From Shigella phage ESh4, in sequence record ON528718: a stretch of DNA of 51,077 nucleotides; one strand, given 5' to 3'. The position numbers and the translations under genes were made by a program. Below the pieces are notes generated by a model. That model worked only from the letters and a program-made list of their open reading frames with translations, ran no database searches and was not told the DNA's origin. Shown here in pieces: positions 3,172-32,823 of the stretch (positions within the stretch are counted from its first letter, which is position 1; each line of letters begins with the position of its first letter).

Positions 3172-3218
3172 ATTATGCCCGACACAAGGCCGGGCGTTTT
3201 AACAAAAAGTGCTATTTT
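3172..3218 (-). promoter_or_regulatory. conserved promoter-like unit (22-bp element + hairpin spacer + CATAAT)
   Basis: Sense: AAATAGCACTTTTTGTTAAAAC-GCCCGGCCTTGTGTCGGG-CATAAT; 22 bp between TTGTTA and CATAAT; stop TAG of upstream ORF lies inside element. Confidence 0.55.
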
Positions 3219-29647: not shown

Positions 29648-30622
29648 TTAACCTGATTTTTTCAAGCCAGTAATAAGCACTAGCGTAAACGGACGGTAAA
29701 TCGTCAGGCCAGTACATTTTGAAGTGCACGGAACTTTGAAATGCAGATCTTTTGGCTGCGCCGGAAGCATGTTAAATGCTTCTGGAATCTCGATCGACAT
29801 ATTCATTGGGTCTTTCTCATATACCAGGCAACCTTTAGTTCCAGCGCCATCAATATCCTCAAGCTCTGCGATTGAGTCGATGGTGATTCCGCTGTTTTGT
29901 TTCTGGAAGTATTCCAGATAACTTTCAGTGGTGTTTTCCATTCGAACGGAAAGAACCTTGCGCATAGACGGCGGAATCAGGATGTTGGTTGCTCGGTGCT
30001 GACCATTGGTGATGGTCTGAATGGTTTCAATAGCCTTTTCCAGTTCATCAGATGCTGCCTGCGGGAACTTAGTGTTTTCATCAGCACTTAACCAGCCAGT
30101 TGACACGATCTTTGTCAGGTTAGGGTGTTCAAACACCGAAAGAATCTTATGCGGCTTTGAACCCTTAAACACCAGGCGGTTAACCTCCTGATCATGAGCG
30201 TTTTGCGCTGCGTTTGCCTTGCGAGTGGAAAGGCTCTTACCAGTGCGCTGACCAGCCTTGATTTCGTCAATGGAGATCAAGAACGCGTTACCCAGGCGGA
30301 ATACTTTACCGAATTCGCTAGACATCAGCGCGTCAACGGTCGGCAGGTCGTCGGTGTAATCAGCGATAATTTTTGCGTAACCAACTTTGTCAAACATCTG
30401 ATATTCAAAAGTCTTATCAGTATCAGAAAGCTCATTAGTTACAGGGAATACACGAAGCGCTGAACCTGCCGGATATTCTTTCTCGTAAGCATTAGAGCGA
30501 ATCTTATGCAGTTCTTGAGCGGCCCAAATACCCATATCGGACGCATCACCTTTAACGCCGCGAGTAGCCAGATAGCTAGAAACAATATCCGCATCTAGCT
30601 GATCAAATTTTTCTTTTTCCAT
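29648..30622 (-). CDS. major capsid protein
   Basis: 324 aa, flanked by strong promoter-like sequence upstream and terminator downstream; T1-type capsid gene position. Confidence 0.75.
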   Translation of the reverse strand: MEKEKFDQLDADIVSSYLATRGVKGDASDMGIWAAQELHKIRSNAYEKEYPAGSALRVFPVTNELSDTDKTFEYQMFDKVGYAKIIADYTDDLPTVDALMSSEFGKVFRLGNAFLISIDEIKAGQRTGKSLSTRKANAAQNAHDQEVNRLVFKGSKPHKILSVFEHPNLTKIVSTGWLSADENTKFPQAASDELEKAIETIQTITNGQHRATNILIPPSMRKVLSVRMENTTESYLEYFQKQNSGITIDSIAELEDIDGAGTKGCLVYEKDPMNMSIEIPEAFNMLPAQPKDLHFKVPCTSKCTGLTIYRPFTLVLITGLKKSG

Positions 30623-30665
30623 TTTCTTCCTCCATATATAAAGGTCGTTAGTATGTAACGGACCA

Positions 30666-30693
30666 ATGATAGCATTTTTTGTTAAACGTGCAA
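30666..30693 (-). promoter_or_regulatory. sigma70-like promoter for major capsid gene (TTGCAC-16-TATCAT)
   Basis: Built from an inverted copy of the conserved element (plus 30669-30687). Confidence 0.45.
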
Positions 30694-30705
30694 CATAATT
30701 TTGTG

Positions 30706-31140
30706 TTATGGGTCAATGCTTACCCCGACAATATATGAATCATGATCAACCTTTACATGTTCGCCAGTAAATATCCAACCAATCAGCAAGTCGCCTTCAC
30801 TGTATGCCACATCTCCATCTTGCGTTACAAATACTTTATCTCCATATTCTGGCGCTTCGCTCTCAGAAGTTAAGCACCAAACATTACCACGACTAACCAC
30901 ATTAACTGGATCGCCCTCCTCATATATGCACGAGTCCGGCGGCCTTACTGCCACTCCAATAACCAGATCACCATTAACACTGACTATTTTATATCCGCTT
31001 GATATATATGATAACCTTACAATCTTACCTGGTGAAATAAACTCGTCTCCACATACAAAAGAACCATTAATCACCATTATTGAAGAATCAACCATGCATC
31101 CTGGCGACTCAGCGCCAACAATGACTGAATAATCACTCAT
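30706..31140 (-). CDS. capsid-associated protein, paralog A (decoration-like)
   Basis: Shares motifs with 31186-31698 (GVAV..., E.G...NV...G.VW.L....AP.[FY]G); same module. Confidence 0.5.
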   Translation of the reverse strand: MSDYSVIVGAESPGCMVDSSIMVINGSFVCGDEFISPGKIVRLSYISSGYKIVSVNGDLVIGVAVRPPDSCIYEEGDPVNVVSRGNVWCLTSESEAPEYGDKVFVTQDGDVAYSEGDLLIGWIFTGEHVKVDHDSYIVGVSIDP

Positions 31141-31154
31141 GAGAACTCCAAATA

Positions 31155-31178
31155 TAAAAAAGGCGCTCAGTGAGCGCC
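31155..31178 (-). terminator. intrinsic terminator
   Basis: GGCGCTC-ACT-GAGCGCC followed on minus strand by TTTTTTATATTTGGAG. Confidence 0.65.
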
Positions 31179-31185
31179 ATATTTA

Positions 31186-31698
31186 TTAACCTGCTGAAAC
31201 TGCCGGAACTTTTTGCACCTGAACCTCTACCAGCTTCAAGTCTTGAAACTTGGTGAAATCACCAGTCGCGATCCAGTTTGTTTCGATAGTGCCAGACGTG
31301 GTATCAACCTGACCATCATCAGACAGTTTGATTGTAGTGCCGAACGCTGGCGCGGAAGCGTCTTTAGCCAGCATCCAAACACGCCCTTCAGTCATTACGT
31401 TGATTCCGCCGCCAGATTCATAAATCATTCGACCGTCAGACGAAGTTGTCTGAAAGTGAGATCGAATTGCAACGCCGTAAGCCTTGCCGCTTGCCGCCAT
31501 CGGCTTAATTAGCTTATTGCCCATAGCGTCAACTCCGCCATGCTGGACCGCCACACCAACAAAAACAGACTGATTCTGATTGCCTGCCGCATTCTCAAGA
31601 ACACAAGCGCCATCAATATTATAAGCTGAAGTGTCAGAAACCTGACCAGGTAACGCACGAGACATTACAGCAAAATAACTTGCTCCAATTGTAGCCAT
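31186..31698 (-). CDS. capsid-associated protein, paralog B (decoration-like)
   Basis: Paralogous to 30706-31140; followed by terminator. Confidence 0.5.
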   Translation of the reverse strand: MATIGASYFAVMSRALPGQVSDTSAYNIDGACVLENAAGNQNQSVFVGVAVQHGGVDAMGNKLIKPMAASGKAYGVAIRSHFQTTSSDGRMIYESGGGINVMTEGRVWMLAKDASAPAFGTTIKLSDDGQVDTTSGTIETNWIATGDFTKFQDLKLVEVQVQKVPAVSAG

Positions 31699-31710: not shown

Positions 31711-32823
31711 TTATTTAAGTTTTTTCAAACGCGCAGTCGGATCAAGGGAGTCGGTTTTTTCACTCTTGCCAGATTCGAAAGAGTCGCCCTTAACAGATTT
31801 ACGCTGCGCCGCCATTTTATCAGACTGCTTCGCAAGGTCAAAAGCTGTTTCAATATATGCATCGGCTTTTTCTGAAATATCAGCGCCAGTGACTTCTTTG
31901 ACGTAAGCAACCTTAATCGCTTTAGCGTCCAAGCCGTCACACTTGATGCCAATTTCAGTTGCATCTGCAACCAGCTTGGCGTGTTCTTCTGCGTCAGTCT
32001 TCGCCTTCTTAACAGCTTCTGCAATCTGCGCCGGAATGCCATCGACTTTAGTTTTCAGGGCGTCGCGCTCTGCCTCAAGGCCATCAGCTTTTTCGGTTGC
32101 AGCTTTTGCATCTGCCTTTAACGCCTCAATATGATCAGCAACGGCCTTTGGAACATCAAATTCTACCGCGCCATCAAGTTTAATTTTTACTGTCATTTCC
32201 TCATCTCCTTTGTCATTTAGAACCTCGTCACTATACGGAAAATCTTGTTCACTATCAAGATTTAATTTGGCAATGCCAGCACGACCACGAAAGACAAGTG
32301 CAATGTGATTAACACGGATATTCGTCTGAATGGCGTCAAATTTAACCCAATCAGGAGAATCTGGATTCCAGTCTTCCTTGAGATCTTCCTCAAACAAGTA
32401 ATCACCGGTTTTATTATTACCCCAGCCTGGCTTGTCAATATCAACCGATGTGTAACCAACTGAAATTTCCGCCGTGTCTTTCTTTTTTGCGCTCTCAATT
32501 GCTCGCTTTGAGTAAATGCTTAACGGAACTTCAACGCCAATCCCATTTGGAACACCAGCGCCAGCGCATGAACCAACAACAACCTGATCCGCATTATCTG
32601 GCGTCACTGTGACGTGACCGATAGTGATTGGCTTGCCTGCGAACGTAGCAAGCGAATCAGCCTTAAACACTTCTGACGCTGGTCGGAACTCTCGTCTGAT
32701 TCCATACGGCGTGCGGTACTCCTGCAAGCCAATTCGCGCCACAATTGGGCGATCCACTAAAAATCCATTATCATCAAAATGCGCCTTAACTTGGACGCTA
32801 TCAAATCTTTGTTTTGCCTTCAT
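31711..32823 (-). CDS. head scaffolding protein (possibly with N-terminal protease-like domain)
   Basis: C-terminal half Ala/Lys/Glu/Asp-rich coiled coil; position between minor head and capsid genes. Confidence 0.5.
   Translation of the reverse strand: MKAKQRFDSVQVKAHFDDNGFLVDRPIVARIGLQEYRTPYGIRREFRPASEVFKADSLATFAGKPITIGHVTVTPDNADQVVVGSCAGAGVPNGIGVEVPLSIYSKRAIESAKKKDTAEISVGYTSVDIDKPGWGNNKTGDYLFEEDLKEDWNPDSPDWVKFDAIQTNIRVNHIALVFRGRAGIAKLNLDSEQDFPYSDEVLNDKGDEEMTVKIKLDGAVEFDVPKAVADHIEALKADAKAATEKADGLEAERDALKTKVDGIPAQIAEAVKKAKTDAEEHAKLVADATEIGIKCDGLDAKAIKVAYVKEVTGADISEKADAYIETAFDLAKQSDKMAAQRKSVKGDSFESGKSEKTDSLDPTARLKKLK

Follow-up and report, generated by a model that had tools for sequence, protein, structure and literature searches.

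Two adjacent genes between the head maturation protease and the major capsid protein of Shigella phage ESh4 raise the question of whether they are copies of one head protein and, if so, what each copy does in the virion. The window, that is, the whole stretch of 51,077 nucleotides that was analyzed (record ON528718), comes from a phage of the genus Hanrivervirus, a T1-like coliphage of the Drexlerviridae (Tempevirinae). The 3.3 kb around the pair is 96-98% identical at the nucleotide level (~97%) to vB_Eco-B1.3, vB_EcoS_G29-2, SFP17, haarsle and about 50 further genomes. The whole head module is encoded on the minus strand, where the order is protease/scaffold, p1, an intrinsic terminator, p2, a promoter-like element and the major capsid protein gene (Table 1). 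The original prediction had drawn the two open reading frames with the limits given in the table, and these are correct; it left their strand unstated, and as this is minus, the 170-aa gene (p1) is transcribed before the 144-aa gene (p2). The flanking genes were also named correctly, the 'scaffold' being the DUF2213 protease with its C-terminal extension, upstream of the pair, and the capsid gene (PF09950, 2e-54) lying downstream. By synteny, the protease gene is the counterpart of T1 gp50.

Table 1. Features of the head module around the tandem pair, in minus-strand order
Feature	Coordinates	Strand	Details
Portal	34871-33591	-	Family assignment by profile search
Mu F-like head morphogenesis protein	33591-32827	-	Family assignment by profile search
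Head maturation protease with long C-terminal scaffold-like extension, upstream of p1	31711..32823	-	Pfam DUF2213 7.4e-27; PHROG 530 1.3e-111
Sigma-70-like promoter match in the 3' end of the protease gene	31814..31841	-	TTGACC, 16-nt spacer, TG, TAAAAT; 10/12 matches
p1, 170 aa, main capsid cement protein	31186..31698	-	Ortholog of T1 gp49 / FCWL1 'cement protein II'
Intrinsic terminator between p1 and p2	31156..31178	-	7-bp stem (6 G-C pairs), 3-nt loop, U6
p2, 144 aa, minor cement paralog	30706..31140	-	Counterpart of T1 gp48 / FCWL1 'decoration protein gp29'; no C-terminal Big_2 domain
Promoter-like element before the capsid gene	30666..30693	-	TTGCAC, 16-nt spacer, TGcTATCAT (extended -10)
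Hairpin immediately downstream of the -10 element, where the capsid mRNA is predicted to start	30643..30664	-	GGTCCGTTA-CATAC-TAACGACC
Major capsid protein, HK97 fold family, T1 gp47 counterpart	29648..30622	-	PF09950 2.2e-54; PHROG 264 9e-99
90-aa DUF7444 protein	29591-29319	-	Family assignment by profile search

The two proteins align in BLASTP with 29% identity across ~100 residues (E = 3e-14). Their Smith-Waterman score is 134, as compared with 29.9 ± 5.1 and a maximum of 62 when both sequences were shuffled 2000 times, which corresponds to z = 20 and a Gumbel p of ~1e-12. The claim that p1 and p2 are related therefore survives pairwise alignment against shuffled controls. The sequence core on which it was founded is largely present as described, with GVA[VI]R, YE.G...NV...G.VW.L, AP.[FY]G, DG.V and W..[TA]G all found, but the spacing 'L....AP' had been given one residue short, as five residues separate these positions in both proteins. 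That the similarity is a compositional or chance effect can be dismissed, since none of the 2000 composition-matched shuffles reached the observed score and since p1 and p2 have two Pfam families and one PHROG in common.

Those two families, PF22758 (Phage_cement, with E217 gp24 and Pam3 gp6) and PF23982 (XM1_gp53_minor_capsid), are overlapping Pfam families of capsid cement proteins with the same curated gathering cut-off of 27 bits, and on whole-protein scores p1 and p2 exceed it in both. PF22758 gives 92.0 bits for p1 (E = 5e-26) and 55.5 bits for p2 (E = 9e-15), whereas PF23982 gives 92.2 bits for p2 (E = 4e-26) and 65.5 bits for p1 (E = 6e-18). PHROG 1989 contains both proteins, and no NCBIfam model matches either of them. 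The different best Pfam families could be read as separate origins for p1 and p2, a reading that we rejected, as PF22758 is the higher-scoring family for T1 gp48 and for several further p2 proteins. By sequence, then, p1 and p2 are diverged copies of a cement protein of phage heads, and the decoration-like role first proposed for them is supported by the Pfam cement families and by their T1 counterparts, gp49 and gp48.

The pair is the Hanrivervirus form of a known cement pair, already represented in Pfam and in two structures from 2025, those of phage T1 (PDB 9KZJ, capsid; Viruses 2025, PMC11945409) and of the T1-like phage FCWL1 (PDB 9KMG and 9KMH, capsid and portal vertex; cited in PMC13033339 as Cai et al., Structure 2025). 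The finding was thus correct and its biology is largely explained already. p1 is 52% identical to T1 gp49 (E = 4e-54) and, over residues 1-162, matches the 158-aa chain found in 9KMG, 9KMH and 9KZJ (9kmg_a, E = 2.8e-46), this chain of FCWL1 being identical in sequence to T1 gp49. p2 is 32% identical to residues 1-143 of T1 gp48 (E = 8e-11) and matches the 255-aa chains 9KZJ_H (E = 1.3e-9) and 9KMH_ak (~1e-9) over residues 9-142. The T1 genome has the same order as the window, with ST49 (158 aa), a terminator, ST48 (255 aa) and the capsid gene ST47, and the two phages also have in common the beta-tulip cement fold and a class difference at the N terminus. Both T1 gp48 and FCWL1 gp29, however, have a 255-aa architecture with a C-terminal Big_2 domain, whereas p2 of the window stops right after the cement domain.

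The scores of p2 against T1 gp49 and gp48 are about equal, and its assignment to the gp48 class draws on synteny, the tree described below and the N-terminal signature. The N termini are class specific: p1 proteins have 15-16 residues ahead of an invariant PG motif and the pattern 'MA.I.ASY', whereas p2 proteins have 12 residues and begin with MSDYG or MAYEN. This agrees with the T1 structure, in which the N-terminal arm of gp49 inserts under the shell and reaches its inner surface, whereas gp48 sits on the outside only (PMC11945409).

Structure prediction, which had been suggested as a check on the pair, yields a confident model of p2 with a cement fold. An alignment of 80 sequences, obtained by a wider search, gave an AlphaFold2 model with a pLDDT of 85.7 and a pTM of 0.82. 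The p2-only homolog search had found 23 near-identical proteins, too shallow a set, and a model built from 15 sequences, mostly >85% identical, was discarded (pLDDT 53, with residues 1-84 below 50). In a Foldseek search of the PDB, the top five matches of the retained model are all cement chains of FCWL1 and T1 (TM 0.73-0.78, E 1e-10 to 1e-8), the closest being those of FCWL1 (TM 0.78 for 9kmg_b and 0.77 for 9kmh_ak). These are followed, in order, by Pam3 gp6 (E = 9e-5), a Borrelia BB1 decoration protein and XM1 gp53 (3e-4), and more weakly by the base of the phi29 gp8.5 head fiber (~2e-2) and TW1 gp56 (3.5e-2). On this model, p2 has the beta-tulip cement fold, as reported for both T1 gp49 and gp48 (PMC11945409).

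Beyond the T1-like phages, the resemblance extends to trimeric cement proteins encoded by single genes, namely Pam3 gp6 and E217 gp24 (PF22758), XM1 gp53 (PF23982), TW1 gp56 and the base of phi29 gp8.5, although the sequence identity is just 11-18%. XM1 gp53 and the TW1 protein are described as trimers of one protein, and we know of no second, vertex-specific paralog for the remaining single-gene cement proteins. The lambda protein gpD (PF02924) is likewise a trimeric beta-tulip stabilizer at the threefold sites of a T=7 head, but lambda has a single gene, without an Ig-bearing or vertex-specific paralog. Neither p1 nor p2 matches PF02924 at E ≤ 1, and the relation to gpD is one of fold and function only, an analogy that the T1 authors also draw (PMC11945409).

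What the pair does in the head can be approached from T1. Taking the evidence as a whole, we put the probability at about 85% that a single explanation holds, in which p1 and p2 are paralogous cement proteins with a T1-like assembly and with p2 dosed by read-through of the terminator. The T1 head is a T=7 shell of 415 gp47 subunits with 80 homotrimers of gp49 and 60 heterotrimers, each of gp48 and two gp49, as seen by cryo-EM (PMC11945409). On this pattern, a T=7 shell of the HK97 type would form first, after which cement trimers would bind its capsid protein at 140 threefold and quasi-threefold positions, each clamping three capsomers. From the T1 and FCWL1 structures, p1 would supply 80 homotrimers and one p2 would join two p1 subunits at each of 60 further sites, so that a head would carry ~360 p1, 60 p2 and 415 copies of the capsid protein. 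The heterotrimers, the copy numbers and the read-through are extrapolated from T1 and FCWL1 to a phage with a short p2; a literature search for proteomic data on virions of Hanrivervirus and other T1-like phages (Drexlerviridae) yielded nothing usable.

The geometry of the shell indicates where p2 would sit. Each hexon of a T=7 lattice contacts two penton-hexon-hexon junctions, one strict threefold axis and three general hexon-only junctions. Around one T1 hexon there are four homotrimers and two heterotrimers (PMC11945409, legend of Figure 2A). With two heterotrimers per hexon and 60 in total, the heterotrimers would therefore form a ring of five round each vertex, a placement that PMC11945409 does not itself state but that fits the five chains of the p2 homolog, gp29, in the FCWL1 portal-vertex entry 9KMH. 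We infer that p2 is a low-copy cement subunit adjacent to the vertices and made by terminator read-through; it would be the symmetry-breaking subunit beside the fivefold vertices. In T1, the Big_2 domain of gp48 is flexible, protrudes from the head and is proposed to aid adsorption (PMC11945409). Since p2 of the window has no Big_2, it would serve as cement only, with no protruding adhesin-like module.

p2 could instead assemble unlike T1 gp48, for example as 20 homotrimers on the strict threefold axes, which would also require 60 copies, or at the portal vertex only. Its lack of Big_2, its identity of just 32% to gp48 and its rank as the fastest-evolving gene of the module would all be compatible with such a departure. 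Yet two independent structures, those of T1 and FCWL1, both from phages with a long p2, put the p2 cement domain in mixed trimers, and the p2 clade is monophyletic with short and long forms interleaved (see below), which speaks for a single, retained role of the cement domain. We regard a different assembly as very unlikely.

To place the pair among its relatives, 78 related loci from IMG/VR were surveyed. The tandem pair is present in 52 of them (contigs of ~49-53 kb), all with the order protease, p1, terminator, p2 and capsid gene, whereas 24 have a single cement gene ahead of the capsid gene; phage Rtp is among the latter (100% identity). Three loci (L037, L058 and L059), in which apparent frameshifts, probably assembly errors, split or fuse the cement or the capsid genes, were left out of the tree and of the length survey. 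Of 49 clean tandem loci, 25 have a p2 of 143-168 aa and 24 a p2 of 255-338 aa. The Pfam scan of the window p2, which ends at residue 144, shows no match to Big_2 (Ig-like). Among the long forms, the domain was detected in T1 gp48 and in six of eight others scanned, one of which has two copies; the other two gave no match to Big_2. Because 25 of the 49 loci are without the extension, Big_2 is an optional rather than a defining part of the p2 clade.

In a neighbor-joining tree of 53 sequences, comprising p1, p2 and single-copy cement proteins, p1 and p2 form separate clades (bootstrap 98 and 87, respectively), each spanning phages of the T1, TLS and Hanrivervirus types. The branches of p2 are much longer. 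Short and long p2 proteins are interleaved in all three p2 subclades, which implies several losses or gains of the Ig-like domain. No other gene of the module evolves as fast as p2, whose dN/dS among Hanriverviruses is 0.07-0.21, indicating purifying selection. Such values, together with an intact reading frame of 143-168 aa in all 25 short-form loci, the 92 bits on a Pfam family and the confident fold model, make it highly improbable that p2, having lost the Ig-like domain, is decaying and no longer contributes anything to the virion, even though it is shorter than T1 gp48, lies behind a terminator without a promoter of its own and has a higher dN than its neighbors.

The dS of p2 is also unusual. 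Among near-identical Hanriverviruses it ranges from 0.10 to 0.79, in most cases above the values of the p1, capsid and protease genes and often two to three times as high. In addition, the trees of p1 and p2 show incomplete congruence. The raised dS and the incongruence suggest exchange of alleles at this locus. The p2 stop codon and the 'TAACACAAAAA' context that follows it are common to most short and long forms of p2, which, together with the raised dS, suggests a cassette-like swapping of p2 alleles between conserved flanks.

The pair had been attributed to an ancient tandem duplication. Its age holds relative to the group, as p1 and p2 form separate clades and only one copy is present in Rtp-like and other relatives; a tandem origin is favored but weakly resolved. 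The alternative is capture, in which recombination would have brought p2 from another phage into the interval between the terminator and the promoter. The node that joins p1 and p2 against the single-copy genes has a bootstrap of 33, which leaves room for capture, and the same interval holds unrelated inserted genes in Rtp/Rogue1-like phages and so accepts foreign DNA; the partial incongruence of the trees and the raised dS of p2 suggest allele exchange and point the same way. Nevertheless, p2 is sister to p1 in the neighbor-joining tree, a p2 profile ranks p1 (137 bits) above the single-copy cement genes (121 bits), and none of 366 database homologs represents a closer donor lineage. We therefore consider capture unlikely and favor, if weakly, local tandem duplication as the probable origin of p2.

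How the two copies could be made in different amounts is suggested by the signals between the genes. The terminator predicted between the open reading frames is real: within the 45-nt intergenic region, GGCGCUC-ACU-GAGCGCC is followed by U6 and folds with -14.8 kcal/mol (z = -4.0; none of 200 shuffles is equally stable), and a terminator is annotated at this position in the G29-2 and T1 records. A hairpin and T-tract separate p1 and p2 in all 52 tandem-pair loci. As these hairpins have at least 10 different stem sequences, it is the structure that is conserved and not the sequence. Between the starts of p1 and p2, no sigma-70-like promoter was matched in 19 of 20 representative loci. With a terminator upstream of p2 and the next promoter downstream of it, expression of p2 from read-through transcripts only is the simplest reading, and it agrees with the T1 head, where gp49 and gp48 occur at 6:1. 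Good Shine-Dalgarno sequences precede p1, p2 and the capsid gene alike, and thus translation does not obviously lower the level of p2. Transcription would then be cut back by the conserved terminator after p1, would reach the promoterless p2 by read-through and would restart for the capsid gene at the conserved promoter-like element, the net levels being high for p1, low for p2 and high for the capsid protein.

Two promoter-like matches frame this arrangement. [quoted passage not shown] It may boost transcription of p1, but its conservation is weak evidence because the match is inside a coding sequence and may just reflect the protein. The other precedes the capsid gene in a spacer of 83 nt that holds, in succession, the promoter-like element, a hairpin and a strong ribosome-binding site. 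This element is present in every distinct tandem-pair intergenic region in which the interval was captured whole, and also in several single-copy relatives. In the latter, for example Rtp, the order is cement gene, terminator, promoter-like element and capsid gene, with nothing between terminator and promoter, and the Rtp element reads TTGCGT, 16 nt with TG, and TATAAT.

The element before the capsid gene contains one copy (30669-30686) of an 18-nt repeat of the phage, TTTAACAAAAAATGCTAT, and this repeat (TTTAACAAAAANTGCTAT) occurs 15 times in the window as compared with 0.47 expected. We considered a promoter specific to this locus and rejected it, the core of the element being instead one of the 15 copies of a genome-wide repeat; for the same reason, we treat a promoter function as provisional. 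Described as a direct repeat in TLS and other T1-like phages, TTTAACAAAAANTGCTAT has an unproven function (PMC11447400). Its copies in the window start at 3198, 4218, 6736, 15691, 26909, 30669, 39184, 41831, 42840, 43830, 44294, 45634, 46512, 48481 and 49157. The repeat includes a TGnTAT core like an extended -10, and several copies directly follow a short G+C-rich hairpin; it may mark points at which transcription restarts after terminators.

The hairpin that follows the -10 element is weak when taken alone, a truncated fold lacking the three outer stem pairs giving -6.6 kcal/mol (z = -1.6). The stems of equivalent leader hairpins in relatives (loci L006-L059) differ in sequence and stay complementary, for example GGCTGTTA/TAACAGCC and AGCCGTGA/TCACGGCT. 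The leader hairpin could act as a 5'-terminal stabilizer of the capsid mRNA.

A broader reading, to which we would give even odds, is that the gap between terminator and promoter is a conserved low-expression slot where minor head-surface proteins of T1-like phages evolve; p2 would be kept there mainly as a vertex-adjacent subunit that breaks the symmetry of the cement lattice and is made by read-through at ~1/6 of the level of p1, with the Ig-like domain as an add-on repeatedly lost or gained. If so, the Hanrivervirus p2 without Big_2 is a natural experiment in which the structural role can be viewed apart from the adhesin role. In half of the relatives surveyed, p2 is without the Ig-like domain and under purifying selection, which suggests that the duplicate is needed for the lattice and not for adhesion to the host. 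The invariant terminator before p2 would offer phages a simple and testable route for setting a subunit ratio of ~6:1. Beyond what the T1 and FCWL1 structures show, the pair adds little that is new: a minor paralog naturally without Big_2, the repeated loss or gain of that domain within the clade and an invariant terminator by which the dose of the minor subunit is probably set.

In single-cement relatives of the Rtp/Rogue1 type, the interval from the terminator of the cement gene to the capsid gene holds variable inserts. These lie at 3562-6411 in L061, 3572-4457 in L064, 3562-5007 in L068, 3798-4841 in L069, 3745-5733 in L070, 3619-4308 in L072 and 3563-4825 in L079. They include proteins with a common N-terminal domain, starting with 'MAYTE' or 'MALEF', followed by collagen-like GPQ repeats; the GPQ-repeat proteins may be head fibers.

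The analysis also bears on existing annotation. Two genes listed as 'hypothetical' in dozens of Hanrivervirus genomes can now be named major and minor capsid cement protein. In addition, p1 is labeled 'putative zonula occludens toxin' in NC_049828 (haarsle, gp21) and in at least a dozen other GenBank/RefSeq records of Hanrivervirus. The Pfam matches of p1 at E ≤ 1 include no Zot family, and there is likewise no NCBIfam match; judged by these searches, the label is a propagated misannotation. Our literature search found nothing usable that discusses it. The label can be removed, which is of practical value: as candidates for therapy, these coliphages undergo screening for toxin genes, and the label could wrongly flag one of them.

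Other records carry further inconsistencies. In PP988008 (phiE31-2, locus L002), p1, the true capsid protein and the 90-aa DUF7444 protein are all named 'major capsid protein', a p2 without Big_2 is named 'BIG2 domain-containing protein', and a 123-aa gene in the head-tail joining region is named 'ribonucleoside-triphosphate reductase'. About 20 records labeled 'Campylobacter phage', with Campylobacter jejuni as host, match the head module of this E. coli phage, and one of these phages, A121 (MG065670), has close matches to both cement genes. The assignment of these ~20 records to a C. jejuni host looks doubtful.
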